Positions 2,540 through 46,073 of a stretch of DNA of 64,000 bases are shown in pieces. Numbering within the stretch: the stretch's first letter is position 1; each line of letters starts with the position of its first letter. This stretch comes from Planctomycetota bacterium (GTDB lineage: Bacteria; Planctomycetota; PUPC01; JACPCR01). A model generated the notes under the pieces. The model did no database searches. It saw nothing but the letters and a program-made list of their open reading frames with translations, and was not told where the DNA came from. The DNA is taken from contig JAQBXN010000005.1 in NCBI GenBank assembly GCA_027625095.1, positions 22,959-86,958 on the forward strand, in the 5' to 3' direction. A program made the translations under genes and the position numbers.

Positions 2540-4084
2540 TCAACGTTCAATCACCCAGATATTTTGGTAAACAACCGGGTTGCCGTGACCCTGGAGGTAA
2601 AGCGGGCCGGCGTCTGCACCTTCGGCTGCTCCGGACCTGGTGCCGCCGTGGATTTCAACTTTGTCGTGAACAAGCACCCCGTTGTGGTGAACGGTTAATA
2701 TGGCATTGCTGACCTTTTTGCCATTGTCGTCCCATCGCGGAGCTTTGAATTCGATGTCATAGGTTTGCCATCTAAGGGGCGGAAAGCACATGTTTACTTT
2801 CGGTTCGGCGACTGAATAGATGCCCCCGCATTCATTGTCCTTTCCCTCTAGACCAAAAGAGTCGAGAACCTGCACCTCAAATCGCTGCTGCAGGTAAACA
2901 CCGCTGTTGCCCCGTCCCTGGCCCCTGGCGAAAGGCTTGTAAGGGGTGCGGAATTCAATGTGAACAAATTGATCCTGAAATAATTTCTTGCTCTTCGTGC
3001 TACACCAGAGCAGCTTGTCATCAGTCATACGGCCGTTTTCAAAATTGTCAGCGCTCGAGCCATCAAACAGCACGATAGCGCCCACAGGGGGCTTCTTCCC
3101 AAGCGTTGGACTCTCACGTTCAATTCGTTTCAGCGTTCCAGATTCTTTGCCATCCTGCCCAAAGACAGTCATCACCTCTTTGACAATTCTGGCCGACCAG
3201 ACCTCGCCCTTTACTTCAGTAACGCCGCCCTCTCCCATCGCTCCAGTAATTCGAATCTTGCCTTCCTCCTTAATCCATCCGTCACCCGGAAGACCTCCGG
3301 GATAGAGCACCGCTTGAAATTTGCTGCCCCCATCCGACACCACCTGGATTCCAGTTTTGCGAGGCTTCTCGTCGAGAACCACTTCCCCGGAATACTCCCC
3401 CTGAATCAGGAAGTCTGGATCGTCTCTGATGGCTTCCTCCAAGTTTGTGTAGGTCTTGCCGCCACCATCGTGCTTCGAAGCAGGAATCTGATAGCTGGCC
3501 CATGCATTTTGATCCCACGCTATCTTCGCCGCCGATTCGAGGTGCGACAGCACGTGAGGGGGAAAAGGTTCCTCTTTTCCGCCGGGGGTTTTCATTCCAG
3601 CAATACAGCCGGCTCCGCCGCCAACCTCAAGAAACTCGACCAGCAGTTCGTGTTCACCCGCTTCCAGCTCGACCATACCAGATTTCCGCAACATGCCATG
3701 CACGCCCCCATTATTTACAACGACTTTTCCATCAATCCAAAGTCGCGACCCGTCATCAGATTCGGTAAAAAAGCTGTAACTGCCTCCGTCACGCAACGTG
3801 AGCTTGCCCGACCACCTGACGTAAAAACTGTCTACCAGTTTGGTCTTGTAAAATTCGCCCCCAACCGAAACGAAATTAACCGTTCCATCCAAGCGAACCA
3901 GGAACGGTTTTACGTCCTTCTCAATCTTCGGAAAGTCCTTCGGCGTCTGCCCAAGCTTAAAGTACTCGCCAATCAACCCAGGCTGTAAAACTTCATCGAG
4001 GAGTTCGCTCAGTTCTTCCGCGTACAGGCAAGAGTTCAGAACCAAAGTAACAAGACCACCGGCAACAAAACTATTTCGCATCAT
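2540..4084 (-). CDS. Exported PA14 domain + DUF1080 (3-keto-disaccharide hydrolase family) fusion protein
   Basis: 514-aa ORF with signal peptide. PA14-like segment: GLIGEYFKL...YVRWSGKLTL...FFTESDDGSRLWIDGKVVVNN. C-terminal DUF1080-like segment: HIEFRTPY...GNSGVYLQQRFEVQVLDSFG...ECGGIYS...WQTYDIEFKAPRWD...LTVHHNGVLVHDKVEI...LYLQGHGNPVVYQNIWV. Confidence 0.8.
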   Translation of the reverse strand: MMRNSFVAGGLVTLVLNSCLYAEELSELLDEVLQPGLIGEYFKLGQTPKDFPKIEKDVKPFLVRLDGTVNFVSVGGEFYKTKLVDSFYVRWSGKLTLRDGGSYSFFTESDDGSRLWIDGKVVVNNGGVHGMLRKSGMVELEAGEHELLVEFLEVGGGAGCIAGMKTPGGKEEPFPPHVLSHLESAAKIAWDQNAWASYQIPASKHDGGGKTYTNLEEAIRDDPDFLIQGEYSGEVVLDEKPRKTGIQVVSDGGSKFQAVLYPGGLPGDGWIKEEGKIRITGAMGEGGVTEVKGEVWSARIVKEVMTVFGQDGKESGTLKRIERESPTLGKKPPVGAIVLFDGSSADNFENGRMTDDKLLWCSTKSKKLFQDQFVHIEFRTPYKPFARGQGRGNSGVYLQQRFEVQVLDSFGLEGKDNECGGIYSVAEPKVNMCFPPLRWQTYDIEFKAPRWDDNGKKVSNAILTVHHNGVLVHDKVEIHGGTRSGAAEGADAGPLYLQGHGNPVVYQNIWVIER

Positions 4085-4094
4085 GTAGTTCCAA

Positions 4095-4874
4095 TCAGAG
4101 GTTCAAATCAGTAGTCGAAGAGTGTTCGCGGAGAGCATTGACAAGCGGATTTGCATCTGTCCTGCAGAAGCCGAGATGACTGTGCCGCCGCCATCCTTCA
4201 GCAAATTCATACTTTCCACTCAGATTTCCAATCGCTCTGCAGAGTTCCTTCATCGTGTGAACGTATGAATCGAGGCCCTGGCTGACGTCCAACCAATCCT
4301 TTTGTGATCTATGAAACGCAAGCATCTCAGCTTTTTGTTCGATAACACTCGTAACGTCAACAAAGATCTTCGGAAGGACTGGTTCCCATAATCCATCCCG
4401 ATTCCCGTGCGGCTGTGCATGGTAAACGGTGACGTCACCGGCAACGATATCGCGCGGGGGCTCGGCAGGGAAGTTCGGCATTCCACGGCAGAACGCCGCG
4501 CTCACGCCCAACCGACAGGCATTCATATGGTCTTCCATGTAGTCCTGCGGTGAGTGTAGCAACAGGATCTCCGGATCCACCTCTCGCATTATTGAGGCAA
4601 GCCGTGCCAGGAGCTTCTTTTCATAGAAGACCTCAATGTCGTTCGTGAGGCTTTCATGGAAATGCGCCCCGATGAATTCAGCCGCATTCTTTGCCTCCTC
4701 ACGCCGCATGGGAACGAGAGTGGCAGCGTCGTACTCGATGGAACCGCACGAGCCATTGGCAATGTTCATGTAATGCAATTCGTAACCGGCATCTTTGAGA
4801 AGCATCAAAGTGCCGGACATCACGAACTCGATGTCGTCCGGATGCGCCGCGATGGCAAAAGCGGTCTTCGCCAT
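4095..4874 (-). CDS. PIG-L (LmbE-like) family N-acetyl-sugar deacetylase
   Basis: 259 aa. The N-terminal AIAAHPDDIEFVMSGT motif and downstream His/Asp-rich positions are typical of PIG-L deacetylases. No signal peptide. Lies 2 nt downstream of the NagB-like gene. Confidence 0.8.
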   Translation of the reverse strand: MAKTAFAIAAHPDDIEFVMSGTLMLLKDAGYELHYMNIANGSCGSIEYDAATLVPMRREEAKNAAEFIGAHFHESLTNDIEVFYEKKLLARLASIMREVDPEILLLHSPQDYMEDHMNACRLGVSAAFCRGMPNFPAEPPRDIVAGDVTVYHAQPHGNRDGLWEPVLPKIFVDVTSVIEQKAEMLAFHRSQKDWLDVSQGLDSYVHTMKELCRAIGNLSGKYEFAEGWRRHSHLGFCRTDANPLVNALREHSSTTDLNL

Positions 4875-4876
4875 GA

Positions 4877-5803
4877 TTAATGCATCTCTGCATCACAGGA
4901 ACCGATGCCGCTACGCAGGAAGTGAAAGTGCACGTTTGGATGATCTGCCAGCAACGACATTGGAACGCTCGAATCCGGGATCTTCTTTGAGATCATGAAC
5001 GAGGTCAGACGCATACCGAATGGATTGTCATGGGTTCCCGCCTGCCAGATAGACACCTTCTCCGATTTCCATGTTTCGTCCGGCCCGACACTTACAGCCT
5101 GGGTTGGCACATTCTGAACAACGCCTCCTCCTGAAGTGCGAGCGTTCTGGATCAGCGTCATCGGGTGCAGATCGACCACGCGCGTGGTGAGCTTTCTGTA
5201 TTCTTCGGGCGGAGGCGGTTCGTCTTCATAGGGTGCTTCGCGCTTGGGCGGATCGTTAAAGGCCCAATGCTTTACCTCGCCCTGCCCGCCCTGCATGGTA
5301 ACACAACGGACCTCGTTGAATGCCTTTATGTAGTCTGTGGAATCGACACCCGGGAAATGCAGATTCTCTTCGGGCATTTTCAGGTCGTCACGAATTCGAT
5401 CGAAACACAAATCCATATCGGCCTTCTTGAAACTCAGCGGATGATCGTCAGGCACTTCCTTGCCATTTTCGACCCATTCATCCATCCCCCAAAAGTGTGC
5501 GTTCTTGAGATTCAGGTCCAGGGCATTCACAAGTCGTGCAACGAGCGGAAGTTGCTCGGTAGGCCCGATCGGCCCGCAGATTCCAGCAGGCTCATCATCC
5601 GTGGCTTGCTGCCAGGCATAGATATAGTCAAGCGCTTCGGCTAGATAGAAATCTTCTACGGTTTCGTAAAACGACACCTGAAATCCTTCCCTGGAGAGAC
5701 CGAGCAGATCCGCCGCAGTTAGCCGTGCTGCGTCATCTAGAATTTCACGGTCAAGGGTGGTGTAGTCCCACCATTCGGGCGCAACGATACTTCTTGCTCT
5801 CAT
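4877..5803 (-). CDS. Glucosamine-6-phosphate deaminase/isomerase (NagB/6-phosphogluconolactonase superfamily)-like protein
   Basis: 308 aa. The segment [19 protein letters not shown]...[11 protein letters not shown]...[18 protein letters not shown]...ENLHFPG matches the NagB-type pattern (G-x-TP..., DEY/W, hP.S). No signal peptide. Confidence 0.65.
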
Positions 5804-5908: not shown

Positions 5909-8900
5909 TTACCGCTGTTGAACCTTGAGGGCCAACACATCGTGTTTGGGAAGTTTCACAGCGAATCGTTTCAGAAAATCTGTCGATACTGACTTCTGCT
6001 TGCCAATAACCGAGGTCCGAAACTCTTCTGGCTTCTGCATAGAAACACCGATCATCTCGTAATTGCCTTCCGGCATGTGCACACCGACCTCAACGGATGC
6101 CTCGGCGCCCCAATTGAGAAGAGCGATGAATTTCGTTCGGGAATCTATTTCGAGGAGATGGGCCTCGACGTTGCTTCCGTGGGAAAGAAACAACATCGGC
6201 TTCCGGTCGCCAAGAAGTTTGTCTATGTTTGCTCGAAGGCGACTAATAAACTTCGGATCCGTTTCCGCATCCACCCAGTTCTCCTCAAGGCAAACTACAT
6301 CGCCGTTTGCCTGGCCGGTCTTAATCAAGTTTTGCAGAGCGGGCCCTTCATGAACAACACCAAGTTCGTCTACCTCGCCTTGCTTTTGTCCAATGAGAAA
6401 CTTCTTGCCTGACGACCGCGCTTGGGCAAGCAATCCTGCTACTTCTTTACTGACTGAATAAGGAAATGGCAGAATGAGTAAATCGTATTTAGCAGCCTCT
6501 CGAACCTGTTCGACGTGGTCGAGATAGTAGAGGTCGAATGAATAGCCGTTCCTGAGCAGAAACTCGTTGATGAACCGGCTCGACCAGAATCCCTGCTTCG
6601 CTTTTGGATTCCATCCAAGCCAGTAGGTGCCATTCAAGTTGTCCCACCAGTCTTCGGATGCGCGAGAGGTAAGGAGCGCGATACTGCGCGGCGGGCGAGC
6701 CCGGCGGATGCCCCAGCGTTCCAATGATTGAATAAATTTCAATCCGCTCTTGATGGAATCTGTTTTTTCCCAAAGCTCGATGTAGTTGTAGCGGTAGTGA
6801 TTGATTATCGACGCCCCTTGAAAGATGCCACTGATGACCCCAAGCGTACCATCGATGCCCACGCCATCCATCACGGTCGCCTGCCTGTTCTTGGACGCCG
6901 CAACAAAACGCCTGGTCTCCTGTGGCTGATAATCAGTGCCCATGTAATCCACGCTGGAGACATGACCAATCAGATCATAAGCAAGTCCGTAGGTCATGCG
7001 GTTGTTCCCTGAAACCGCTCCAGATCCGATGTTCAAAAGAGTTATGCATTTCGGATTAATTTTCTTAACGATCGCCTGCCGGCGTTTAAGCGCTTCCCCT
7101 GCTCTCTCATAATTCGAAAGAACATGCCGCCTGTAGTTCACCGATTGTTCCCAACCGTTGGGCAAATCGGCGTCCGGCCCCCACCGCTTTCGAAACTCAG
7201 CCCGGCTTGGATGATCTTCAGGAAGTTTCGCTCCACGGGGATTGGCAAGACCGAAAGTGTCTTCGTCCGGCATCAAGTAGACCCCATCCACACCGCGGGT
7301 CGCGACCTCTTCGCAGAGCAATTCGTAAGCGTCCTGGCCTTTCGGGCCAATATAGGTCTCGTAGATATCAGGACGAAACAGCACGAATACCTTCAATCCC
7401 TGCTCATGCGCGCCTTCCGTAAATTCACGCAGAAGATCCCGACCGATAGGAACCTTGATTTCAGGCCTGGGTTTCTCTGGCTGTTCCACATCTTCTTGCA
7501 CTTCATCATCGAACTCGTCCAGCTTCTCATTCTCATCTGTAAGCTTTTCGCCGACCTGAGGAAGCCCGGCCTCTTCAATCTTTTTGTAATAATCAGGATT
7601 GGTGATCGACTTGAAATTCTTACTGGGCCAGAAAGCTTTTGGGTCGGCCTCAATGAACAGCGTCATCGTATCCGCGCCCAGCTCCTTTACGCCCTCCAGC
7701 AACTTCTTAAAAGGGGCATGCGCCCGAATGTCCACTTTCGGCAACTGGTTCTCGTGAATGCCTGCCATCCAGAGATCCACCATGACGCTTTTGAGGATCT
7801 GTGTCGCTGCTGTTGGCTCTGGTAACTGAAGCTTCACCACCTCACCGAATTCAATCCACGGAGTTGACTCTGGAATTTTGGACTCGGGTCTCTGGTCCTT
7901 GGCGAGACGTTGGTAGGTCTCTTCATCTGAATAGATCTCTATCTCACGAATATCCGGATAACTCTTTTCCCATCCCCGCTGGCCCTGGAACGCACGAAGC
8001 TTCAGGCGATACAGTGGCGTCGTTTCAAAGGAAAGCTCTTGCCAGGCATTCGGTGCTCCATCGGCCGCATACACCAGAGCCTTGTCATACTTGCCGTCAT
8101 TCGTGGTATCAGCGTAAAGAAAATATTGAATGGCGAACAGGCCTCCCTGGAGGAAACGAACTCGCGACACCGAAACGGGCTGAGTGAATGTAAAGTCATA
8201 ATTTCCTCCGAGACCGACACCTGTTCGGAAGGATGCGACTGTTGCTTCGTCACCATCGACCAGGTTTCGAATACACATCCCGGTGGATGGGTGGGAGTGA
8301 ATACGGGAAGCAAACCTGGCGATATTCACCCCACTCCCCCGCGCCCCCGAATCTGGCTCAAGCACTTTTATTAAGAGTGCCGAGATTTTCGCCTTTTCCA
8401 GACGTGGCTCGTCTTCTCCCGGACCGACCTCATTTTCCAGTTCTGCGTCCGGGTCGTCCGATTGTTCTGTGAAGGGTTTGCCATCCAGTAGAAGGGCGCC
8501 CCCTTTGATTTGCAGACGGCTGGCTGGGGTCTGGACCGAAAGGCTGCCAGCGAAAGGACTCTGTGCCGCCACAAGTCCGAGGGCCGGATCGGTTCGTTTC
8601 TTCACAGGTGGATAGAAATAACGCCCCTCAATTTGAAATACCTTGTCCTTGTCGTGCAAATAGAGCCTGAACGGTACATCCGGTTTGCCGATGATTGTTC
8701 CGTGGTTGCTGACCAAGTCACGACAGGAACGGGATGGCTGGTATGTTTTCACAATGAGTTTTTCCTTCGGGTCAAAACGCCATTCCGGCGTCCTGAGGCC
8801 GAAGACAAGTTTTTGACCCTCTGATAGGTCCAGAAAGTTTCTTGCCTGAACCTTCAGGCCCGTGCAGTACAGGTCTCCGTTGGCTTTGACCTTCCCACCA

Positions 8901-9727
8901 GGCTTGTCAAGCATCAGCGGGGGAAGAATTCCCTGGGCTGCAATTTGTTGATCGCCCTTTCCCACCATACGTACCCATCCGGTGGACGCCTGGAGTTGCC
9001 GATGAGAGCCATCGCTCTCTATCGAGCCGTGCAGTTGGATGTCACCGATTAATGTGACGGCCGACAATGAAGGTTTACCGCGGAACAACAGGTCTCCCCG
9101 GATGCGCAATACCTGCTCAGCCTTTATCAGGAGGTGACCGCCACTTAGCATGACAGAGCCTTCTACCTCCGTGCTTTCCTCTATCGTCACACTATATGGA
9201 TAAACGGAAGGATGCAGCGTCAATGAACCAAAGATCACTCCTCCGGTTTTCAGTGATATCGATGGGTGTTTGCTATCAATGCTGAGAGCCGGTTTACCCC
9301 GGACCGTTCCCTGATTAGAAATTTGGCCCCGGCCAATAATTACTTCCGAAGTTGCAATTGAAGCATCGAGAAAAGCGTCTTTCTCGATATATAGGCCGGC
9401 CTCTGGCTGGTTGGCGCCGACCTGGTCGTAGTCGATCCTTGAGGACGTCGCTATTCTGACTTTGTGTCCGCTCAGATTCAGCCAGGCTTTTGAGCGAATC
9501 AAGAGCTTTCGATCCACTTCCCCATCGCTGCTCAGCGTCGGATAGTTTTCCAGACCAGCAGGAATGACCACATCGCTACCATCCGATAGCCTGGGCACAG
9601 AACCACTCGACCAGTTCGAAGGCTCGTGCCAGTCAGAGGGCCGTTCTGGATGCGTGCCTTTCCAGTTGTTCGACTCGGCCTGAATCGCGGCGCACAGAAT
9701 GATGAGGTGTTGAATGAATCGTCGCAC
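5909..9727 (-). CDS. Large exported protein: N-terminal beta-helix-like region + discoidin/F5-8-type-C-like domain + GH-like TIM barrel with GH42-middle-domain-like C-terminus (paralog of 10507..13161)
   Basis: 1272 aa with signal peptide MRRFIQHLIILCAAIQAES. Discoidin-like block: NLVDGDEATVASFR...VSVSRVRFLQGG...YPDIREIEIYSD. Motifs shared with the 884-aa paralog: DLWMAG, RGVDGVYLMPDE, SRASEDWW, YDLLILPFPYS. Confidence 0.6.
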   Translation of the reverse strand: MRRFIQHLIILCAAIQAESNNWKGTHPERPSDWHEPSNWSSGSVPRLSDGSDVVIPAGLENYPTLSSDGEVDRKLLIRSKAWLNLSGHKVRIATSSRIDYDQVGANQPEAGLYIEKDAFLDASIATSEVIIGRGQISNQGTVRGKPALSIDSKHPSISLKTGGVIFGSLTLHPSVYPYSVTIEESTEVEGSVMLSGGHLLIKAEQVLRIRGDLLFRGKPSLSAVTLIGDIQLHGSIESDGSHRQLQASTGWVRMVGKGDQQIAAQGILPPLMLDKPGGKVKANGDLYCTGLKVQARNFLDLSEGQKLVFGLRTPEWRFDPKEKLIVKTYQPSRSCRDLVSNHGTIIGKPDVPFRLYLHDKDKVFQIEGRYFYPPVKKRTDPALGLVAAQSPFAGSLSVQTPASRLQIKGGALLLDGKPFTEQSDDPDAELENEVGPGEDEPRLEKAKISALLIKVLEPDSGARGSGVNIARFASRIHSHPSTGMCIRNLVDGDEATVASFRTGVGLGGNYDFTFTQPVSVSRVRFLQGGLFAIQYFLYADTTNDGKYDKALVYAADGAPNAWQELSFETTPLYRLKLRAFQGQRGWEKSYPDIREIEIYSDEETYQRLAKDQRPESKIPESTPWIEFGEVVKLQLPEPTAATQILKSVMVDLWMAGIHENQLPKVDIRAHAPFKKLLEGVKELGADTMTLFIEADPKAFWPSKNFKSITNPDYYKKIEEAGLPQVGEKLTDENEKLDEFDDEVQEDVEQPEKPRPEIKVPIGRDLLREFTEGAHEQGLKVFVLFRPDIYETYIGPKGQDAYELLCEEVATRGVDGVYLMPDEDTFGLANPRGAKLPEDHPSRAEFRKRWGPDADLPNGWEQSVNYRRHVLSNYERAGEALKRRQAIVKKINPKCITLLNIGSGAVSGNNRMTYGLAYDLIGHVSSVDYMGTDYQPQETRRFVAASKNRQATVMDGVGIDGTLGVISGIFQGASIINHYRYNYIELWEKTDSIKSGLKFIQSLERWGIRRARPPRSIALLTSRASEDWWDNLNGTYWLGWNPKAKQGFWSSRFINEFLLRNGYSFDLYYLDHVEQVREAAKYDLLILPFPYSVSKEVAGLLAQARSSGKKFLIGQKQGEVDELGVVHEGPALQNLIKTGQANGDVVCLEENWVDAETDPKFISRLRANIDKLLGDRKPMLFLSHGSNVEAHLLEIDSRTKFIALLNWGAEASVEVGVHMPEGNYEMIGVSMQKPEEFRTSVIGKQKSVSTDFLKRFAVKLPKHDVLALKVQQR

Positions 9728-9769: not shown

Positions 9770-10465
9770 CTACCCGGGGAACTCGATTCTTACCTCATCA
9801 AGCATGAGGTAACCCTCTGGAAGCCGACCACGCCAGACAGGATAATCCTTCTCAGGTCTCAGGATGTGCGGGTCACCTTCGATTGGCCCCATGGGTACCA
9901 CATCCAGCGGATAGAGCACAAACAGGATATTCGCATTGGCATCGCCCATAACGGTGGCCAACGGCGTGTGGCCATAGAAATCGGCACGGTCGTGACGACT
10001 TCCGAGACAGGTCCATTGTGTTTCGTCCGGCACACAGACCACAGTCTGGTTGGTCCACTCTTCGGTAACTGCGAACGCCTGCCCTGTGAGAATCCACCCG
10101 GTGCAAATGCCATTATGCACTCCCTGACAGAGCAAATGCAGTTGAGTGCCATGCTCCAACAATTCTCCCTTCAGGCGGAGCGTGATTCGTGCATGGGTAA
10201 AGTCAGTTCCAAATCCACCGGCGATATAACGATTCGTCCCTGCGATTTCTCTCTGGTGTTCGCCCGCAGTACCACTTGTAAGCAGAATATAGGGCAAATG
10301 CATGTAACCGGCCCCGGGCGGGGCATGGTTGTAGTCAATCCACCAGGGACTACGCGAGATGGCGCAACTGTCACTGATATCCAGCGCCTTTGGCCCCTGT
10401 GAATTACTGATCCAGCCAGTCCATCCTCCGGGTCCGTTATCAAAGTTTTCGAGATATGTCTTCAT
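9770..10465 (-). CDS. Hypothetical protein (no signal peptide, no recognisable family)
   Basis: 231-aa ORF, co-directional and tightly spaced (41-42 nt) between the two large paralogs. The composition is protein-like. The overlapping 258-aa plus-strand ORF (9626..10402) looks like a shadow ORF. Confidence 0.5.
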   Translation of the reverse strand: MKTYLENFDNGPGGWTGWISNSQGPKALDISDSCAISRSPWWIDYNHAPPGAGYMHLPYILLTSGTAGEHQREIAGTNRYIAGGFGTDFTHARITLRLKGELLEHGTQLHLLCQGVHNGICTGWILTGQAFAVTEEWTNQTVVCVPDETQWTCLGSRHDRADFYGHTPLATVMGDANANILFVLYPLDVVPMGPIEGDPHILRPEKDYPVWRGRLPEGYLMLDEVRIEFPG

Positions 10466-10506: not shown

Positions 10507-13161
10507 TTAATTGCCCTGAATTCGTAACAGCTTTATCTCACCGGGACTCAAACCGATATTGAAACTCAGAAGACTGCCTGCACCCACGGCAGCTTTTCCA
10601 CCAACCAGACCACTATGGAGAGCGATATTTTCTCTAGTGCCTTCCTGTGAACTGCAGACCATCACGCTGTAATCCCCCTGCGGTAAAGGCAAACCAACAA
10701 GGGGCTGGGCACTGATAAGACGCTCCATGTTCCCCAGATAGAGAAGGTATTCCTTATCACTCAGCTTACGTGCCCAGTAGCGAACGTCGGCCCCGTTGGG
10801 GTTGAAGCTGTTCGCTGAATTCAGCAGCCGCCGAATCAGAACCAAATTCTCACCCTTCACCGTTCTTGATGACCAGTCTTTCATGAGGTCACTCTCGACG
10901 TGGGTTACATTCTTGTGGCCCACCAACGATGTCAGAAGAGGTTCTGGATGGTTCTGGCCATACTCGTCAGTGGGAGCAAGGAGATCGTAAATCAGTAATT
11001 TCGTGCCGGCTTCCACGGCAACCCTGATGGCTTCAAATGTCGCTTTGGGCATCGAGTAGCTGAAGGGCAGTATCAGCAATTTATATCTTCCGATTTCCTT
11101 AAGCGTCTCAGGTCGCTCTGAATACCGAACGTCATATTGAACTCCATTCGGCTTCAGTAGCTGCTCTATATATTGATTCGAATACATCCCCCGAAATCGT
11201 TCGTACTGATAATGCCGCACACGGGCGTCCGGTGTGAAGGTCTTGCGGGTCTTACTCCAGACAACGGCAAGGTCTTTAGGATCCATAAAGAGAAGATTCG
11301 AATCCTTTGAATTGATGTAGTCCAGAATTTTCGTATCCGCAGACACCTGCCACCAGTCCTCTGAGGCTCTGGAAATGATGACGCAAGTTTCTGCGGCGCT
11401 CTTGCTCTCGCACAACCCCCACTGCTCCAGCAGACGTGCCATCTTGCAAGTCTTAGTCACCGTCTGCCAATAGGGCTCCATGTAGTTAAGGCGATACATA
11501 TTGATTTTCGTGCAACCATTCATCAACAGTTCCATGAAGTAGTCTTGAAAGATGATTGGGAAATCTGTTGCGCCACTCGTACCAAGCGTCTGAATGCTGC
11601 CGAAACGCACTTTGTCTGGAAAGGCTGCCTCGGCCCGTTTGGGATCGCCACTGTAGACCTGTACTCCCGTGAAATTTTCCTGCGCGCCCATAATGTCCGC
11701 GGCAACACCATGTTCCATTCGGGTGTTTGACGGAAAGTACAGATTCGGGCAGCAGAGCAATTCGAGGTCGGGTTTCTTCTCCTTCAGTTTTCCAGCGATC
11801 TCGTTGAACATCTTTGCCAGCCGCGTGTACTCAAAGGTCTTCCACTTGCGGTAATGTTCGTTATCCGCCGCTTTACCGGGCAGGTTGTCATAACCAAAGT
11901 CAGCTTTGAAACGATTGGTGCAATCGGGGCAGTCAGTTTTCGGTAAATAGTGCCCTTTGTAATAGTACTCATCAGGTAACACGTAGACCCCATCGATGCC
12001 CCGGTCGACCACCTCACTTAAGAGAGCAAGCCAGTTACTTTGGAAATGATCGTCGGAAATAATGCATGGATACCGAACCTTGTATTTGTCTTCCAGACCC
12101 TTTGTAAAAATGAAATCCGACTGCTCATAGGGATAGTCCCACCGGCAGTACGGCATGGGCGCCCGCTGGTCTTTCTTCTGAAGAGGTGCAATCCAGGCGT
12201 GCATGAAGATGTAGCTTTTCAATCCATGTTTATGCAGGGCATCAATGAGCACCTTCATGGGCTCGTTGTCAAGATGCGGCCCGATCTTGCTCTTCCACGG
12301 CAACGTATTTTGGCTGTTGTAGGTTTCCGGAAATATTCGGACGCCCGTGGCATCGATTTCCTGAAGCTGCCGAAGCAGTCTTTGGAAACCAGGGGACTGC
12401 TCAAAATTTTTGAGGTCTTCCCTGCCGTAGACCATCCCCGCCATCCACAGATCAATGCAGGGTGTGATTTCGATTTTCTTCGGCCCTGACGCCGGCAATG
12501 GTAACTGAGGGCCGAGCGCTATTTGGCTACGAGCTGTCTCCGGCTTCGGAGACGGCGGGCTCGCTACTTTTTTGTCTGTGTAGATTTCAATTTCGTAATA
12601 CTGGGGATAGCTCCGCCGATAAGGTGGCTGCCCGTCCAGAGCAACAAATCGAAGACTTCGAATCGATTGTTTTACCGGAACCGTTATCCATTCTTCTTGC
12701 TGGTTCGGTTGCTCTGGGAAATTGAGTTTCGCAATTTGCTTGTCGAATTTGTCCGCCGATTCCCCCCCGGCGTTGATCTCGAGGACAGAGGCGCCCTCCA
12801 GGACGAATCGGACCTCGGTGACGTGAATCGCATCGCCAAAATGAAATTCAACCGTGCCCCCGATCTCCGGCCCCGAAGCGCCACGTGCACCCGTTTTTGG
12901 ATCGCCATCCGCCAGGCTGCGCAGCTCCGAATCCGTCAGATAAGGGACAGCGTTCACATCAGCGAGATTCAGCCAATCAAGCTTGTATTGGCGGGACCAC
13001 GCTTCTCTTTCAGCGTGCACAAGTCCCCCTCCACCCCATACCAGACAAACAAAAGATAGGCCGATAACCGCATGTAATTTCATAAGACGATGCCTGAAGA
13101 GCCTGGAAGCTGAAACTTTCGAAGGCGCTACATATTCGGTTCGGACAATATTCACGAACAT
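10507..13161 (-). CDS. Exported discoidin-like domain + GH-like TIM barrel protein (paralog of 5909..9727)
   Basis: 884-aa ORF. The likely true start is ATG 13083 (MKLHAVIGLSFVCLVWGGGGLVHA signal peptide). Discoidin-like block: VEFHFGDAIHVTEVRFV...YPQYYEIEIYTD. Shared motifs: DLWMAG, RGIDGVYVLPDEYYY, SRASEDWW, YKLLILPFSYS. Confidence 0.6.
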   Translation of the reverse strand: MFVNIVRTEYVAPSKVSASRLFRHRLMKLHAVIGLSFVCLVWGGGGLVHAEREAWSRQYKLDWLNLADVNAVPYLTDSELRSLADGDPKTGARGASGPEIGGTVEFHFGDAIHVTEVRFVLEGASVLEINAGGESADKFDKQIAKLNFPEQPNQQEEWITVPVKQSIRSLRFVALDGQPPYRRSYPQYYEIEIYTDKKVASPPSPKPETARSQIALGPQLPLPASGPKKIEITPCIDLWMAGMVYGREDLKNFEQSPGFQRLLRQLQEIDATGVRIFPETYNSQNTLPWKSKIGPHLDNEPMKVLIDALHKHGLKSYIFMHAWIAPLQKKDQRAPMPYCRWDYPYEQSDFIFTKGLEDKYKVRYPCIISDDHFQSNWLALLSEVVDRGIDGVYVLPDEYYYKGHYLPKTDCPDCTNRFKADFGYDNLPGKAADNEHYRKWKTFEYTRLAKMFNEIAGKLKEKKPDLELLCCPNLYFPSNTRMEHGVAADIMGAQENFTGVQVYSGDPKRAEAAFPDKVRFGSIQTLGTSGATDFPIIFQDYFMELLMNGCTKINMYRLNYMEPYWQTVTKTCKMARLLEQWGLCESKSAAETCVIISRASEDWWQVSADTKILDYINSKDSNLLFMDPKDLAVVWSKTRKTFTPDARVRHYQYERFRGMYSNQYIEQLLKPNGVQYDVRYSERPETLKEIGRYKLLILPFSYSMPKATFEAIRVAVEAGTKLLIYDLLAPTDEYGQNHPEPLLTSLVGHKNVTHVESDLMKDWSSRTVKGENLVLIRRLLNSANSFNPNGADVRYWARKLSDKEYLLYLGNMERLISAQPLVGLPLPQGDYSVMVCSSQEGTRENIALHSGLVGGKAAVGAGSLLSFNIGLSPGEIKLLRIQGN

Positions 13162-13172
13162 GTGTACTCAGT

Positions 13173-15095
13173 TTACTGGCCGAGTTTTTGAGCAAGCGCA
13201 GCCAGACCCTTAAAGAAATAGAGCAGTGTAAGAGAGGCGATGATGAAGACGCCGACCACCGCGAAGTAGAAGAATGTGCTTCGCCCTTTGAATGACTTTG
13301 TCCAGGCCTCGACCAGTTGAGGGTCTTCGTTGCGAAGCTCGAACATCTGGGCTGATTCTCCTTCCAGGCCGGCGACAGGCGAAAGAGCGGTGACCTTTCC
13401 GAAGTAAATTGGTTTGCCTGCAGCATGACAGTCCGTGCAGCCATTTACACCGAGCGATTGCGCTCCCGGCCGGACATCGTGAGCGAAGGCCCAGGTATAA
13501 GGCGCCGCAGCGGAATGGTCTGAGCTCACAAGAGTTTCATTGCCCGCTCTGTGAACTTTGCCAGCCGTAACATAGACCACTTCACCCTTCTCAACACTTT
13601 TCTGAAGCTTGCTGATGATTTGCGAAATCTGCTTCTGATCGGGGAGAGTGGCCTCCTCCTTCATGGACTTTTTTTCTTTCACGATGCCCTGGCCAGCATC
13701 TCTTACGTCCTCAACCGCAATTGGCTTCAGCACGTCTCCGTCGAGAGTTCCGAAGTAGGCGGGCCAGATCATTCGGTGCGGAGTAATTTTCTCGGATTCA
13801 TCTCTAAGAAATGCGGTGCCGGCGATGAGCGGCAGAGCCTGCCGATACCGGGTGGCTATACCAAGCTGGTGGGCCATCGAAGTTTTGAATCCGCCAGCAA
13901 TATGGCCAGGCCATGGCCCGGCATGACACGAGGTGCAGGACATCTTTTCAAGATGCAGAGTGGGCAGCCCTTTATGTTCGGGCCGCGGTGCGGCAAAGCG
14001 CCCGCCCAGGCCCAGGCCCTCTCTGGCTTCGGATTCGCCGAGATGGCATCCCTGGCATGAGAGTGCAGCGGGGGTGGCCGGGTCTCCTTCTATTCCTCGA
14101 TTAATCGCGTGGTCGAGCCCATTGCGATGACAATCGACACATTTCAGACCTGCGGCAATGTGGACGTCCGTATCCGTCTGCCAGTGCGTCTCCTCATGGC
14201 CGGTGCTGATAGCTGTATGGCAAAAGTAACATCGATCATTTGGCGGCGACTTGGTGACATTGAAGAAGAAGCGATCGTTCGCATCGAATTTAGTCTTGTC
14301 ATAGATGACCTGTGGAGGCTTCTGGTCCGGAAAATCAGGATTGGGGCCGGCGAAGGGGTCGTAATCCTCCGGCAGTAATTTTGCCTCGCCCCGCACCATG
14401 GCAAAGTCTGTCGCAGCGGTGGGTGCCCATTTAAAATTCTGTTTTGCAATTTGAACGCCCCATTCCACCGGGTCGTGTCGCTGGTCGGCAGAATGGCAGA
14501 GGAGGCAATCGACTTCCAGGTTGCCGGCGATCATCCAACGAGCGAGGAGATCTTCCTTATCCTTGTCACGCCTCTCCCCCACCCCGCTGCCAGGCATGTG
14601 CCTGCCGAATTCCTGAATGAACTTCCAGTATGTCAGCCCGACGTCTTCCGGCCGGAATGTGTTTTTCCAGCCGCGGTAACTTAATGGAATTTGAGTCCCT
14701 GTCGGTTCATCGACCAGAATCCACGGCTCGCCTGGCCTGCCGTGGTTCACGTCTTTGTCAGCAGCGTTGAAGTGCCAGCCTTTGTGGATCAGACCATAGG
14801 GATGGCATTTGCCGCAAGTATGGGATGGAGAGTAAGGCGGCGCCTTTTGATCTGATGGAGAGATGGCCGTGCCGCCCTCATCGTAAAGAGTAATGCGATG
14901 AACGAACCGAGAGCGGCTGTCAGTTTTTAGAAATTCGACCTCTGAATGCGCTGAGGTCAGGAGCAGGAGACAGAGGCCGGACAGGAGTGACTGAGTAATG
15001 GAGTGATGGAGTGAAGGGCTGGAATTTCGATGATTCCCAGGCCCGTCAGCGGATACCCGATCCTCTTTTCCTGCTACACATTCCTCCGCCATCAC
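13173..15095 (-). CDS. Membrane-anchored heptahaem c-type cytochrome
   Basis: 640 aa. Seven CXXCH motifs: CGKCH, CLLCH, CYFCH, CVDCH, CQGCH, CTSCH, CTDCH. Hydrophobic signal-like N-terminus (LLSGLCLLLLTSAHS) and C-terminal TM helix (FFYFAVVGVFIIASLTLLYFF). Its start region (GTG 15093-15095 / ATG 15090-15092) overlaps the stop codon of the upstream gene. Confidence 0.85.
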   Translation of the reverse strand: MMAEECVAGKEDRVSADGPGNHRNSSPSLHHSITQSLLSGLCLLLLTSAHSEVEFLKTDSRSRFVHRITLYDEGGTAISPSDQKAPPYSPSHTCGKCHPYGLIHKGWHFNAADKDVNHGRPGEPWILVDEPTGTQIPLSYRGWKNTFRPEDVGLTYWKFIQEFGRHMPGSGVGERRDKDKEDLLARWMIAGNLEVDCLLCHSADQRHDPVEWGVQIAKQNFKWAPTAATDFAMVRGEAKLLPEDYDPFAGPNPDFPDQKPPQVIYDKTKFDANDRFFFNVTKSPPNDRCYFCHTAISTGHEETHWQTDTDVHIAAGLKCVDCHRNGLDHAINRGIEGDPATPAALSCQGCHLGESEAREGLGLGGRFAAPRPEHKGLPTLHLEKMSCTSCHAGPWPGHIAGGFKTSMAHQLGIATRYRQALPLIAGTAFLRDESEKITPHRMIWPAYFGTLDGDVLKPIAVEDVRDAGQGIVKEKKSMKEEATLPDQKQISQIISKLQKSVEKGEVVYVTAGKVHRAGNETLVSSDHSAAAPYTWAFAHDVRPGAQSLGVNGCTDCHAAGKPIYFGKVTALSPVAGLEGESAQMFELRNEDPQLVEAWTKSFKGRSTFFYFAVVGVFIIASLTLLYFFKGLAALAQKLGQ

Positions 15096-16531
15096 ACTTT
15101 GAATTCCTCTGGTTTGAAGAAGTATTTCTGCTGTTCTTCTACCGCTTCATTGACACGCAGCACTGAGACAGCCGTCTCAAAGCCGACCTCTGCCGGACAG
15201 GAGAGCGGGGTACCGTTACGGACGGCGCTGAAGAAGTTTTCCAGGTGGAGCTGGTGTGGCTTCTTTTGGCTTTCGGCAAGAAGTTGCTGACCTTTCGGAT
15301 CCTTCTTGCCATCCGGAGTGAGGGTCTCGCCGATTTTCAATTCGAAAGCCTTCTTATCCATTTTGTCGAAGGTTTCTGACTGCTCTTCCCACTCGCGACT
15401 TTTTGCACCTACTTCTTTGAAGAAGAATCCCTTACGGGTATCTTCAGAAATAACCATCGAGCCCTGGTCGCCCATGAAGGTCTCATAAAAACCGCCATGA
15501 CTGGTGGTGTTCAGAACCTGGTAGGCGCCGCGGACCATACCGTATTCTTTTTCGTATTCGTAGATGGCCAGGATGTTGTCATACCACTCGCTCTTCTTGT
15601 AGTAGTCGGTACCACCGGAGGCCAGGACGGCTTTCGGATTGGCTTCAAGAAACCAACTGAAGACATCCACCTGGTGCGAGCCGAGGTCGGCGATAGGGCC
15701 GCCGGAAAACTTCCGATACCACCGCCAGTTGCGGAAGCGATCCATGGTGTCATAGCCAAATTTCTTCAACGTTTCCTCGTCAAGTGGCTCGTCCTTCGGC
15801 CAGCCGAACTCCAGCCGTTTGGCACGATTCCACTGGCCACTGAAGTGATTCATCTGACCGAGGACCTTGTCTTTTGTGATCAGCTTGATGGCATGGTGAT
15901 AGCGGATGTTGCTGCGCCGCTGGTGTCCAATCTGGAGAAGTTTGCCGGATTCTCTGGCCGCCACGACCATTGATTTGGCCCCCTCAATGGTGTTCGACAT
16001 TTCCTTCTCACAGTAGACGTGAAGTCCAGCCTTCAGGCAGGCGATGGTATGTTCCGCATGCAGCCAGTCCGGTGTGGCGACGATGACAGCATCCAGGTCC
16101 TTCTCCTGGGCCAGCATCTCGCGATAGTCGCTGTAGACATTGACGGAGTGCTTGTATGCCTTGAGATAGTTCTTTGCGTAATTCTGATGGTATGGCCAGA
16201 TGTCACAGAGGGCCTTGTATCGGATGCCAGGCGTCTTGACGCTGTTAAGAATGAGGTTACGTCCCTGGCTGCCTGGGCCGATGATGGCGAGGTTGATGTC
16301 GTCGGGAGTCGCTTCCTCAGCAGTGGCCGTCATCGAAGCAAGAAGCGCGCTGGCGCTGGCGGCCATCGATGTGTTTTGGACAAATTCACGACGCGTCAAC
16401 TCTTGAGGATCTGGCCCCGGCCTCGGATGTGGTTGTTGGCATCCCTGCTTATCCATAAAGTAGCCTCGTTTACGGTGATTACTGGAGTAGGATCGTTTTC
16501 GTAATTGTGGCGAACCTCTCAGTCGTGGCAA
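15092..16531 (-). CDS. Tat-exported Gfo/Idh/MocA family oxidoreductase
   Basis: Twin-arginine leader TRREFVQNTSMAASASALLASMTATA. Rossmann start INLAIIGPGSQGRN. Typical Gfo/Idh/MocA core: VIVATPDWLHAEH...AGLHVYCEKE. The likely true start is ATG 16456 (MDKQG...) rather than the ORF-track start. Confidence 0.85.
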   Translation of the reverse strand: MPRLRGSPQLRKRSYSSNHRKRGYFMDKQGCQQPHPRPGPDPQELTRREFVQNTSMAASASALLASMTATAEEATPDDINLAIIGPGSQGRNLILNSVKTPGIRYKALCDIWPYHQNYAKNYLKAYKHSVNVYSDYREMLAQEKDLDAVIVATPDWLHAEHTIACLKAGLHVYCEKEMSNTIEGAKSMVVAARESGKLLQIGHQRRSNIRYHHAIKLITKDKVLGQMNHFSGQWNRAKRLEFGWPKDEPLDEETLKKFGYDTMDRFRNWRWYRKFSGGPIADLGSHQVDVFSWFLEANPKAVLASGGTDYYKKSEWYDNILAIYEYEKEYGMVRGAYQVLNTTSHGGFYETFMGDQGSMVISEDTRKGFFFKEVGAKSREWEEQSETFDKMDKKAFELKIGETLTPDGKKDPKGQQLLAESQKKPHQLHLENFFSAVRNGTPLSCPAEVGFETAVSVLRVNEAVEEQQKYFFKPEEFKV

Positions 16532-16574
16532 GTGAGACAGATGAGCAGTCCTTCTTCAATCCCCCAAAATATCC

Positions 16575-17957
16575 ATGGCGAAAATCCTGATTGTCGATGA
16601 TGAATCATCCATTCGACTGTTGTTGAGGGAGATGGTGGCAATTCTTGGACATGAGGCTGCCGAAGCTGAATCCGGCCAGGAAGCACTCCGGATGATTGCG
16701 AACGCAGGTGCCGACATCGTTCTCATGGATTTTCGTATGCCGGGGATGAACGGCATCGAAGCTCTCAAAAGGATTCATAAGAGTAAAGCCCTGCTACCCG
16801 TCATCTTTGTCACAGGAGAAGATGGCGCCAGCACAGCAATAGAGGCCATGCGATTCGGTGCACATGACTTTTTGAAGAAGCCGGTATCCTGTGATGCCGT
16901 CAGAAAAGTAATTGAAAGTGCCATCGAGACCCTGCGACATCAGGTGCGCGTAGAATTCAAAACTTCCATGGAATCCGCGGAACCGAAGGAGAAGATCATC
17001 GGGCGTTCGCCCCAGATGCTCCCAATCTACAAGTTGATCGGGCAAGCAGCCGCTTCGAATGCCACGGTGCTGATAACGGGTGAGAGTGGTACGGGCAAGG
17101 AGCTCGTCGCACGCGCCGTTCACCAGCACAGCGGTCGCTCTGGCTGTCCCTTCGTTGCCGTCAACTGCGCGGCGTTGCTTGAAAACCTGCTTGAGAGCAC
17201 CTTGTTCGGACACGAAAAGGGCTCGTTCACTGGTGCTCATCAGCGTCACATCGGCAAATTCGAACAGGCGGCAGGCGGCACGATATTCCTTGATGAGGTC
17301 AGTGAAATGTCGGTGGCCCTCCAGGCAAAACTACTACGCATCCTTCAGGAAAAAACCTTCGAAAGGGTCGGTGCAGAAGAGACGCTGACGTGCGATGTGC
17401 GTGTGGTCGCTGCTACCAATCGTAATCTCGATGAAGAGGTTGAAAATGGAGGATTTCGTCAAGACCTTTACTACCGCCTCAACGTGGTTCAGATTCGCAT
17501 GCCTCCATTGCGTGAGCGTCGAGAGGACATTCCTTTGCTCGCAGAGTATCTGCTCGAACAGGTGGCCGGCGAACTGGGCCGCAGCGAGATTCCGGTGCTT
17601 TCTCCCGACGCGCTACAAGTCCTGCTGCGAAACAACTGGCCGGGAAATATCCGTGAGTTAAGAAACGAACTGGCACGTGCCCTGGTGACAGCACCGTCCG
17701 GTGTAATTCTTCGTGAGCACCTGAGCGTTGAGCCAGGAACGTCCGGCCAAGCCGATGACGGAACATTCTGGGCCTGTTCCAAAGAACAATTGGATGAGAT
17801 CGGAGAAGGGATCTACGATGCAATGATTCCCGATTTTGAACGCCGACTCATCCAATACGCATTGGACCGAACCGGAGAAAATCAGGTACAGGCGAGTAAG
17901 CTCCTCGGCATCTCACGCACCAAATTGCGGGACAGGATGGCACAGTTTGATTTGTAG
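16575..17957 (+). CDS. Sigma-54-dependent response regulator (NtrC family: REC + AAA+ + Fis-type HTH)
   Basis: N-terminal receiver domain (KILIVDDE...DIVLMDFRMPGMNG). AAA+ domain with GESGTGKE Walker A and GSFTGA (GAFTGA-like) sigma-54 contact loop. C-terminal HTH (QVQASKLLGISRTKLRDRM). No sensor kinase gene adjacent. Confidence 0.9.
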   Translation: MAKILIVDDESSIRLLLREMVAILGHEAAEAESGQEALRMIANAGADIVLMDFRMPGMNGIEALKRIHKSKALLPVIFVTGEDGASTAIEAMRFGAHDFLKKPVSCDAVRKVIESAIETLRHQVRVEFKTSMESAEPKEKIIGRSPQMLPIYKLIGQAAASNATVLITGESGTGKELVARAVHQHSGRSGCPFVAVNCAALLENLLESTLFGHEKGSFTGAHQRHIGKFEQAAGGTIFLDEVSEMSVALQAKLLRILQEKTFERVGAEETLTCDVRVVAATNRNLDEEVENGGFRQDLYYRLNVVQIRMPPLRERREDIPLLAEYLLEQVAGELGRSEIPVLSPDALQVLLRNNWPGNIRELRNELARALVTAPSGVILREHLSVEPGTSGQADDGTFWACSKEQLDEIGEGIYDAMIPDFERRLIQYALDRTGENQVQASKLLGISRTKLRDRMAQFDL

Positions 17958-20652: not shown

Positions 20653-21458
20653 CCTGCGAGTTTGTTTACCTCATCGTCCCATGTGCCCTCGATTCGAACG
20701 CCGTATTCCCTCTCCCCGCCGGTGGCATCCGGGCCGGTTATCACCGGGGGCAATTTTTCCCACTTGTAATGTTCTGGGATGAAATCAGTGCGCAGGAAGT
20801 GATACGCACAACCAGCCCGTGGTTTGTCGGTCGTGTTTCCTTTGGTGCAGTGCGGGATTCCGTAATTGAAGAAGAGCACGCCTCCGGCCTTCATCTCCAC
20901 CGCGATTACGTTCTCCTCATCCGGCTGGCAGGTGATGTGGTGATCGCTATCCGGATCGCGTTCGTGGTCGTAAGCCTTTTTGTGTCCGCCGGGCTCAATA
21001 TGCATAGTACCGTTTTCGATGCTGGCATCGTGAAGAGCGATCCACATACCGGTTGCCTTGGTCGGATCACTGACCTTGAAGTAGCCGTTGTCCTGATGCC
21101 AGTTAGTGCCCGCACCGGTATGAGGAGGCTTAAAGAAAATCTGGTCAAGATGCCGAAGATAAGGATCCCCAATGAGCTTGCTGAGGGTGTCCTTCACTTT
21201 GGGACACCACGGCAATGCCCGATAGAGATCACTCTTGTTGTTGAGCGGTATGATTTGGTAATTCGTTTTCGTGTTCGAATGGGTTTTTCCATCGCCATCA
21301 GTAGAAACATTCCGGCCAAGCCCGTCTCGCACAAAGCGATTAAGCTCTGCGACCATGGCTGCCTTTTCCCGGTCATCGAAGAAGTCTTCAAGAATCAGAT
21401 AGCCTTCGTGCTTGAACTGCTGAATTTGGTCTGCCGTTATTTCCATTTCGGATTGCAT
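20649..21458 (-). CDS. Phytanoyl-CoA dioxygenase (PhyH) family Fe(II)/2-oxoglutarate oxygenase
   Basis: 269 aa. FKHEGYLILEDFF start, WHQDNGYF (HxD iron-ligand region) and a distal His (IPHCT) are typical of the PhyH family. Confidence 0.75.
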   Translation of the reverse strand: MQSEMEITADQIQQFKHEGYLILEDFFDDREKAAMVAELNRFVRDGLGRNVSTDGDGKTHSNTKTNYQIIPLNNKSDLYRALPWCPKVKDTLSKLIGDPYLRHLDQIFFKPPHTGAGTNWHQDNGYFKVSDPTKATGMWIALHDASIENGTMHIEPGGHKKAYDHERDPDSDHHITCQPDEENVIAVEMKAGGVLFFNYGIPHCTKGNTTDKPRAGCAYHFLRTDFIPEHYKWEKLPPVITGPDATGGEREYGVRIEGTWDDEVNKLAG

Positions 21459-45975: not shown

Positions 45976-46073
45976 GCGGTGAAGCTGAAACAGGGAACAG
46001 ATGACAGGACGGCGCAACATGGGCCGGCACATGACAACAGCCGAAGCATACCACGCTTTGCGTTTGACTTGGC

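Follow-up and report, generated by a model that had tools for sequence, protein, structure and literature searches.

How would a dehydrogenase that leaves the cytoplasm with its nicotinamide cofactor already bound be returned to its oxidized state? The question is raised by two adjacent genes in a 64-kb stretch of a Planctomycetota genome (the window, by which we mean the whole stretch analyzed). Both are on the minus strand, one encoding a Gfo/Idh/MocA oxidoreductase (OR) with a predicted twin-arginine translocation (Tat) signal and the other a heptaheme c-type cytochrome. Their open reading frames (ORFs), 15092..16531 and 13173..15095, respectively, lie where the initial annotation had placed them, and the overlap that it described is visible in the junction sequence, AAAGTGTGATGG (also given as GTGTGATGG). 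At the hexamer GTGATG (15090..15095, minus strand), the TGA stop codon of OR overlaps the cytochrome start by 4 nucleotides (nt) if that start is GTG 15095 and by 1 nt if it is ATG 15092, and a GAGGAA sequence stands about 12 nt before the start, within the end of the OR gene. Among close relatives, L089 and L086 share the 4-nt overlap, as do several distant loci. By a modest balance of probability, we read OR and the cytochrome as a periplasmic redox couple wired to membrane electron transfer in a 3-keto-glycoside route, most likely of the periplasmic glycoside 3-dehydrogenase:quinone type. The pairing is beyond chance because CXXCH is rare in the window (only one further ORF of at least 60 amino acids [aa], in six frames over 64 kb, has a single CXXCH), because the seven motifs are invariant in 97 homologs, and because the pair is conserved across phyla.

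The identity of OR was established with Pfam, NCBIfam, alignments of orthologs, AlphaFold modeling, and fold comparison. It matches PF01408 (73.1 bits), PF02894 (59.3 bits), and PF22725 (45.3 bits), each above its cutoff. The mechanically assigned start, TTG 16531, is probably wrong and ATG 16456 the real one, because GAGG lies 9 nt upstream of the latter and the resulting N terminus aligns with those of orthologs; the description of the gene as a Gfo/Idh/MocA protein with a Tat leader stands, and only its start at 16531 probably falls. From ATG 16456, the gene (15092..16456, minus strand) encodes 454 aa. Its N terminus, MDKQ...ELTRREFVQNTSMAASASALLASMTATA/EE, is a twin-arginine leader; residues 1-47 (16316..16456, minus strand) contain TRREFV, a hydrophobic region, and the ATA/EE site, the motif elements reading TRREFV...ASALLASMTATA/EE. 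Alignments of 26 and of 69 OR orthologs show no variation at the twin arginines, R22 and R23, and RRx[FLIV] is kept in 53 of 54 cytochrome-adjacent orthologs. By motif, hydrophobic region, and AxA site, OR is thus a Tat substrate whose export is predicted.

The Rossmann GxGxxG motif of OR, GPGSQG, is invariant among orthologs, and D85 at the end of strand β2 is acidic, which suggests an enzyme of the nicotinamide adenine dinucleotide (NAD) type rather than one using NADP. Catalytic-type motifs are YCEKE, GHQRRS, and GGPxADLGSHQxD, and in the alignment of 69 orthologs K151 (of YCEKE), D257, and H261 are invariant, as expected of predicted catalytic residues. The AlphaFold model has a mean predicted local distance difference test score (pLDDT) of 87.8, with residues 1-50 at low confidence. 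Its nearest folds are WlbA (a UDP-GlcNAcA 3-dehydrogenase), GFOR (1h6d, 1ofg), levoglucosan 3-dehydrogenase, glucuronide 3-dehydrogenase (8tdi), and scyllo-inositol dehydrogenase, with target-normalized template modeling scores of 0.73-0.82 against WlbA and GFOR, and 1,5-anhydrofructose reductase is also among its structural neighbors. By sequence, the closest solved structures are DgpA, 1,5-anhydrofructose reductase, GFOR, and inositol dehydrogenases. Several of these neighbors hold a nonexchanging nicotinamide, and several oxidize pyranose at C3. The best NCBIfam match is the BT_2158_fam glycoside 3-dehydrogenase equivalog (NF058561), but OR falls outside that family, scoring 90.8 bits against a cutoff of 750, with residues 21-266 aligned to positions 1-251 of a 487-position profile. 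The OR subfamily is 60-67% identical across phyla, compared with about 45% for the cytochrome. Two further Gfo/Idh/MocA genes in the window (22899-24161 and 42792-43793) apparently encode cytoplasmic proteins.

The cytochrome gene (13173..15095, minus strand) encodes 640 aa with an N-terminal signal- or anchor-like helix. As the initial annotation stated, the protein has exactly seven CXXCH motifs and a C-terminal transmembrane (TM) helix. The motif cysteines are C94, C197, C289, C319, C347, C387, and C553, in a region (13425..14816, minus strand; residues 94-557) whose motif columns are invariant in alignments of 20 and of 97 sequences; the TM helix (13188..13280, minus strand; about residues 606-636) is conserved in the family alignment. 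The AlphaFold model (pLDDT 84, predicted template modeling score 0.83) places helices at residues 29-48, a signal or anchor, and 605-639, the C-terminal TM segment. Exactly seven further histidines are invariant in the same 20 and 97 sequences: H66, which sits just upstream of the CXXCH region, H108, H312, H329, H374, H381, and H539. These are the presumed distal ligands, which would give seven bis-histidine hemes, and the match of seven CXXCH motifs with exactly seven other invariant histidines argues for an electron-transfer protein rather than a catalytic one. With several CXXCH motifs, an export-type N-terminal helix, and candidate ligands, the protein is a multiheme c-type cytochrome with predicted heme attachment.

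Profile and structure searches agree with the earlier statement that this cytochrome cannot be placed in a named multiheme family. Its sole passing Pfam match is Cytochrome_C7 (31.8 bits, residues 308-391), and all matches in the NCBIfam scan scored below 19 bits against cutoffs of 70-800. A search of the PDB with a profile of 20 homologs returned only a 55-residue heme-pair stretch of NrfA (E 7e-5), and Foldseek with the cytochrome model returned nothing at E <= 0.001, the top structure being octaheme tetrathionate reductase 1sp3 (template modeling scores 0.22/0.30). Pfam, NCBIfam, the PDB profile search, and Foldseek together gave no significant assignment to NrfB/NrfH/NapC, MtrC, OTR, HAO/c554, HmcA, DmsE, MmcA, or Ext. 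The cytochrome belongs to an uncharacterized family without a solved structural relative. More than 1,500 homologs were found by word-indexed search, all annotated as "hypothetical"; an exhaustive profile search gave 508 clusters (50% identity) at E <= 1e-30, and the family is present in at least 548 species-representative genomes. Fusions of the cytochrome to OR were sought among the longest family members (870-1080 aa), which hold cytochrome domains only.

The initial annotation had made its proposal depend on the two genes remaining neighbors in related genomes, and they do so from either side. The cytochrome-side sample comprised 80 genome loci, all from metagenome-assembled genomes (MAGs) of Planctomycetota (including Phycisphaerae and Pirellulales), Sumerlaeia/BRC1, Kiritimatiellota, Calditrichota, KSB1, Omnitrophota, Acidobacteriota, and "Cytophagia," of which 69 had enough upstream sequence to test; one more homolog came from a Neomarinimicrobiota MAG. 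An orthologous OR (380-690 bits) lies immediately upstream on the same strand in 54 of the 69, within 2.5 kb in a further 4, and is represented by a divergent Gfo paralog in 2. On the OR side, an independent sample of 80 metagenome loci and 3 look-ups gave 71 testable loci, with the cytochrome immediately downstream in 52 and adjacent but masked by overextended ORFs in about 7 more (about 59/71); the remainder includes 2 loci with a different membrane complex and 8 with neither.

Other genes travel with the pair in its relatives, above all a cytochrome b. With a profile built from stand-alone seeds, fusion proteins being kept out, a PF01292 (Ni_hydr_CYTB/prokaryotic b561) protein was found next to or fused with the cytochrome c in 73 of 76 testable relatives, directly downstream in 67 and fused in 6 (L005, L006, L019, L030, L036, and L053). 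These are four-helix proteins of 150-260 aa, and the fused cytochrome ORFs reach 760-830 aa, with b joined at the C-terminal helix of c. Because they are naturally fused, cytochromes c and b can be argued to form one complex. Both cytochrome b seeds have the four histidines of a diheme b, two of which are nearly invariant in a coarse alignment. In hydrogenases and formate dehydrogenases, a PF01292 subunit serves as the anchor that interacts with quinone. Downstream of the cytochrome genes, about 45 loci encode a protein with an F5/8-type-C domain (about 250 aa) and about 38 a PMT_2-like (GT-C) membrane protein (about 530 aa); ApbE, at times fused to the PMT-like protein, is encoded in about 40 (for example, downstream of the c/b pair at L081:14949-15926 and L083:16685-17599 and in L008 and L037). 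Few of the F5/8 (2/46) and PMT-like (2/38) proteins have the [S/T]GA[S/T] flavinylation motif, and a conserved target of this kind is likewise absent from the ORFs near cytochrome-type loci. The ApbE of cytochrome-type operons is in this sense an "orphan," with no detectable flavinylation substrate.

More than half of the loci encode DUF1080 proteins, which are frequent upstream of OR and often fused to an AP_endonuc_2/xylose-isomerase-like TIM barrel. DUF1080 and TIM barrel correspond to BT2156/BT2157, the partner enzymes in the 3-keto-glycoside pathway of Bacteroides and Alistipes. Together with the BT_2158 best match of OR, they support the suggested keto-sugar link. Outer-membrane or extracellular cytochrome partners did not recur among the loci.

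In two OR loci, L092 and L106, the OR ortholog is followed by an NQR/RNF-like set in place of the cytochromes: two Rnf-Nqr membrane subunits, an NqrF-like Fer2/FAD/NAD protein, RnfD, and an FMN_bind subunit, with an RnfC-like iron-sulfur protein also seen in L092. Genes for F5/8, PMT, and ApbE proteins lie downstream of the set in L106, and F5/8 and PMT genes follow it in L092, up to the end of the sequence examined. The FMN_bind subunit has a canonical D..TGAT flavinylation site in both, and only in these two variants do ApbE and a conserved flavinylation motif occur together. The same RnfG/NqrC-like FMN_bind domain is fused to an F5/8-type-C domain (L092:12997-14244 and L106:12012-13991), which ties the small F5/8 protein of the cytochrome-type loci to the electron path; this lectin-like protein is suggested to be part of that path or a docking site. 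Three further loci (L119, L127, and L133) have OR with F5/8 (and PMT and ApbE) genes but without cytochromes. The exchange of modules between L092/L106 and the other loci fits the flavin/cytochrome interchange described in Meheust 2021 (PMC8238504). Most simply read, these variants show an exported OR served by a membrane electron-transfer module that may be heme- or flavin-based.

Under the redox-couple reading, the dehydrogenase would fold around NAD in the cytoplasm and then be exported by Tat. It would oxidize a sugar or glycoside hydroxyl, most likely at C3, to a 3-keto-glycoside, which DUF1080-type enzymes, with or without the TIM-barrel lyase, would cleave. The bound NADH would be re-oxidized not by a second sugar but by the seven bis-histidine hemes of the anchored cytochrome c, from which electrons would pass in most organisms to the adjacent or fused diheme cytochrome b and on to the quinone pool; in the lineage of the window, they would go to a b-type partner whose gene lies elsewhere or to some other acceptor in the periplasm or membrane. 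Covalently bound flavin mononucleotide (FMN) is considered as one possible converter between two-electron and one-electron steps, given the conservation of ApbE in the fuller operons. Of this scheme we infer the substrate, the contact between OR and the cytochrome, the direction of flow, and the transfer of hydride to heme. More tentatively, and with a probability we would put well short of even, the c/b module with its F5/8 adaptor, PMT-like protein, and ApbE could be a dedicated nicotinoprotein:quinone oxidoreductase, a general re-oxidation system for Tat-exported Gfo/Idh/MocA dehydrogenases that would convert bound hydride to single electrons directly or through an unrecognized covalent flavin and would be swappable with the NQR/RNF-like machine.

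Several observations weigh against the redox couple. The weak link is that a hydride donor would have to feed one-electron hemes in operons of the cytochrome type, in which a flavin site could not be detected. NAD(P)H can donate electrons only as hydride, flavin-free transfer of this kind from NADH to heme c is not known to occur, and in cytochrome-type loci [S/T]GA[S/T] is found in 0 of 61 OR, 0 of 81 cytochrome c, and 0 of 73 cytochrome b proteins. The 64-kb window has no gene for a cytochrome b or for an F5/8, PMT-like, ApbE, or TIM-barrel protein, and the closest relatives likewise have no cytochrome b, F5/8, PMT, or ApbE gene near the pair; the proposed role of the cytochrome as a conduit to the respiratory chain gains independent support from the relatives with a cytochrome b, which the window itself lacks. 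The substrate of OR is uncertain because its BT_2158_fam score lies so far below the cutoff. Eight of the 69 cytochrome loci have no Gfo gene upstream, and the gene tables of two of these, which were inspected, show unrelated genes there. OR orthologs with Tat signals and 62% and 60% identity to the OR of the window are solitary in L090 (CP054190.1, a 3.9-Mb chromosome) and L091, genes for cytochrome, NQR/RNF-like, F5/8, PMT, and ApbE proteins being absent up to 7 kb from OR; these orthologs may have a membrane partner gene at another site or may do without one. Outward electron flow from the cytoplasm would also be compatible with the NqrF-containing variant. Finally, the initial argument that an exported nicotinoprotein must have an external acceptor does not strictly hold, since in AL3/BT2158, GFOR, and DgpA the cofactor is recycled by a second substrate, a second sugar (Liu 2021, PMC8121099; Nasseri 2024, 10.1101/2024.03.25.586180).

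The last point leads to the main rival, to which we give a minor but real share of the probability: that cleavage is redox neutral as in AL3/BT2158, with the same NADH reducing the released 3-keto-sugar, and that the cytochrome or NQR/RNF-like module merely re-poises trapped enzyme with a small corrective flux. The AL/BT enzymes work without NAD(P) being supplied and are re-oxidized by 3-keto-sugars, and their authors report that the enzyme becomes stuck in the reduced state in vitro and name cytochromes as a possible re-oxidant in vivo (10.1101/2024.03.25.586180). The loci described here likewise conserve the TIM and DUF1080 partners, and some OR orthologs are solitary. Against this, a heptaheme c, a diheme b, and accessory genes beside OR in about 85% of loci in many phyla would be a heavy cost for repair; sequence data do not separate the redox-neutral cycle from the redox couple. 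Electrons might also run the other way, from the quinol pool or cytoplasmic NAD(P)H through the module to OR, which would then reduce keto-sugars or other carbonyls in the periplasm. We consider this improbable, since the TIM/DUF1080 partners use 3-keto-glycosides that oxidation must make and the neighborhoods show no obvious need for periplasmic keto-sugar reduction. By standard redox potentials, transfer from quinol to NAD+ is also strongly uphill. What speaks for reverse flow is the NqrF-like subunit in L092 and L106, the reversibility of Gfo/Idh/MocA enzymes, with 1,5-anhydrofructose reductase among the structural neighbors of OR and sugar 3-ketoreductases among its sequence matches to solved structures, and the outward direction generally proposed for NQR/RNF-like clusters with extracytosolic FMN-binding subunits (Meheust 2021, PMC8238504).

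A slightly smaller chance attaches to the genes being neighbors without direct transfer, the c/b pair being an independent quinol:acceptor oxidoreductase of the CbcL kind with which OR is merely co-regulated. Eight loci that have c and b (with F5/8, PMT, and ApbE) without an upstream Gfo gene would be accommodated in this way, but the tight and often overlapping OR-cytochrome junctions across distant phyla would not, nor would the same position of OR before a wholly different module in L092 and L106, and outer-membrane or extracellular partner cytochromes do not recur. Least probable of all, in our judgment, is that OR is an NAD-dependent glycosidase in the style of GH109/GH4, carrying out oxidation, elimination, hydration, and reduction in one site with no redox partner. 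GH109 proteins are exported enzymes of the Gfo/Idh/MocA fold, and the GH109 α-N-acetylgalactosaminidase 2ixa is among the sequence matches of OR (E 2e-8), but this reading would not account for the conservation of the cytochrome and of the DUF1080/TIM partners. As a main explanation, GH109 was rejected: 2ixa matches only the Rossmann part (E 2e-8 to 2e-16), ranks 24th to 40th, with DgpA, GFOR, inositol dehydrogenases, and 3-dehydrogenases far ahead of it, and does not appear in the list of 50 structural neighbors of OR.

Measured against known systems, the redox couple we favor borrows features from several. Geobacter CbcL is an inner-membrane protein in which a diheme b of the HydC/FdnI type is joined to a multiheme c domain and which oxidizes quinol for extracellular electron transfer. 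We take the c/b module of the relatives to resemble it in architecture, with a PF01292 b joined or fused to a multiheme c, and presumably to differ in heme number, in sequence family, and in standing behind a dehydrogenase, the copy in the window lacking the b subunit. In LacABC/G3DH with DUF1080 (Caulobacter, Agrobacterium, and Pedobacter; Price 2022, PMC9007349), as in our scheme, C3 is oxidized in the periplasm, a cytochrome subunit leads to the respiratory chain, and a nearby DUF1080 enzyme cleaves the keto-glycoside. There, however, the catalytic subunit is a GMC-type flavin adenine dinucleotide (FAD) enzyme with a small subunit, able to pass single electrons to heme, and here it is a nicotinamide enzyme; no GMC/FAD-oxidoreductase domain was found in the window genes scanned, and the cytochrome of the pair, of a seven-heme family, is unrelated to that of LacABC/G3DH.

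The BT2156-BT2159/AL1-AL4 clusters of Bacteroides and Alistipes (PMC8121099; 10.1101/2024.03.25.586180) likewise have a periplasmic Tat-exported Gfo/Idh/MocA dehydrogenase with tightly bound NAD and with DUF1080 and xylose-isomerase-like TIM partners, but OR belongs to a different subfamily, as its BT_2158_fam score indicates. The window has the DUF1080 partner of BT_2158-type systems and no TIM-barrel homolog; related loci commonly have both, often fused. The gut BT/AL clusters have no cytochrome, and 3-ketoglucose is thought to recycle their cofactor, whereas here a heptaheme c, with a diheme b in most relatives, is fixed beside OR. Zymomonas GFOR, one of the top structural neighbors of OR, is also a Tat-exported Gfo/Idh/MocA protein with a nondissociable nicotinamide; unlike OR, it has no cytochrome partner, fructose re-oxidizing its cofactor in a ping-pong cycle. 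ApbE in the fuller operons and the D..TGAT FMN_bind complex in L092 and L106 recall the NQR/RNF-like flavinylated clusters of Meheust 2021 (PMC8238504), but the cytochrome variant lacks a detectable canonical flavinylation target, and a term search of that paper turned up no cluster of this kind. A full-text literature search returned no paper pairing a Gfo/Idh/MocA enzyme with a multiheme cytochrome, and the Nasseri preprint (10.1101/2024.03.25.586180) raises cytochromes as a re-oxidant of AL3 only as speculation. Because OR falls under the BT_2158 cutoff, there is no FAD subunit, and the cytochrome is in no described family, the locus belongs to none of the LacABC/G3DH, BT/AL, or CbcL systems; what is new in it is a cytochrome family not described before and, as an unusual donor, a nicotinoprotein.

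The window itself holds an atypical, reduced version of the system. In its closest relative, L089, OR is 88% and the cytochrome 84% identical, and the upstream genes (sigma-54 response regulator, MoCF, and GDSL) are kept; the downstream genes are unrelated to those of the window. As only the upstream synteny is kept, the unit conserved in this lineage is regulator, OR, and cytochrome, and the glycan cluster has been added locally. On a Tara contig from a more distant relative (52% identity), the operon is fuller and has a 129-aa membrane protein where cytochrome b lies in other loci. The pair was described initially as heading a cluster rich in glycan-active proteins including a DUF1080 protein: it does head a co-directional nine-gene block with short gaps, but the downstream cluster is not kept even in the closest relative. 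After the cytochrome, the block (all on the minus strand) continues with genes for an 884-aa protein, a 231-aa orphan, a 1272-aa protein, a NagB-like protein, a PIG-L protein, a PA14-DUF1080 protein, and a DUF4838 protein. The 884-aa gene (10507..13161) starts 11 nt past the cytochrome stop, and its product, of no assigned family, is a paralog of the 1272-aa protein (5909..9727), with 25% identity over about 850 aa; Pfam, NCBIfam, and the PDB gave for both only a weak GH42M-like (β-galactosidase trimerization) match, and the two may represent an undescribed family of glycan-active enzymes. The 231-aa orphan (9770-10465) lies between them. The NagB-like (308 aa) and PIG-L/BshB1-like de-N-acetylase genes (4095..5803) overlap by 4 nt and hint that the local cluster handles N-acetylated amino sugars, the NagB match being weak (TIGR00502, 24.7 bits). 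The PA14-DUF1080 gene (2540..4084; PF06439, the 3-keto-disaccharide hydrolase family) lies 11 kb downstream of the pair in the same block, its DUF1080 domain clustering with those encoded beside the pair in other loci, and the DUF4838 gene (128..2479) ends the block.

Divergent from OR is an NtrC-type sigma-54 response regulator gene (16575..17957, plus strand), the one kept beside the pair in L089. A search of the 118-nt intergenic region 16457-16574 gave no clear sigma-54 -24/-12 element, and promoter- and terminator-like matches were no commoner than in shuffled sequence. Elsewhere in the window are three PhyH-family (phytanoyl-CoA dioxygenase-like) genes within 22 kb (20649-21458, minus strand; 36946-37854 and 41601-42383, plus strand) and a tyrosine recombinase gene of the XerC/D type (45085-46149, minus strand; Phage_integrase and SAM-like N-terminal domain), which adjoins an enolase-superfamily (MR_MLE) gene.

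How Tat-exported dehydrogenases with tightly bound NAD are re-oxidized was left open by two experimental papers, one suggesting a second sugar and the other adding "specialised proteins such as cytochromes," and this locus family is a concrete and widespread candidate for the latter. It poses a chemical problem, that of a hydride donor feeding one-electron hemes, and the exchange of cytochromes for an NQR/RNF-like module at the same gene position offers a natural comparison. The occurrence of the pair in hundreds of uncultured bacteria suggests an undescribed feed of electrons from extracytoplasmic sugar oxidation into the membrane chain. If the redox-couple reading is right, glycoside cleavage would be coupled to the membrane chain rather than redox neutral, and the energetic accounting of polysaccharide degradation in abundant uncultured sediment and marine lineages would change. 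If the module is also the general re-oxidation system tentatively proposed above, oxidative (3-keto) glycoside cleavage would become an energy-conserving respiratory reaction, and it would be explained how the many exported Gfo/Idh/MocA paralogs of Planctomycetota and neighboring phyla stay oxidized.

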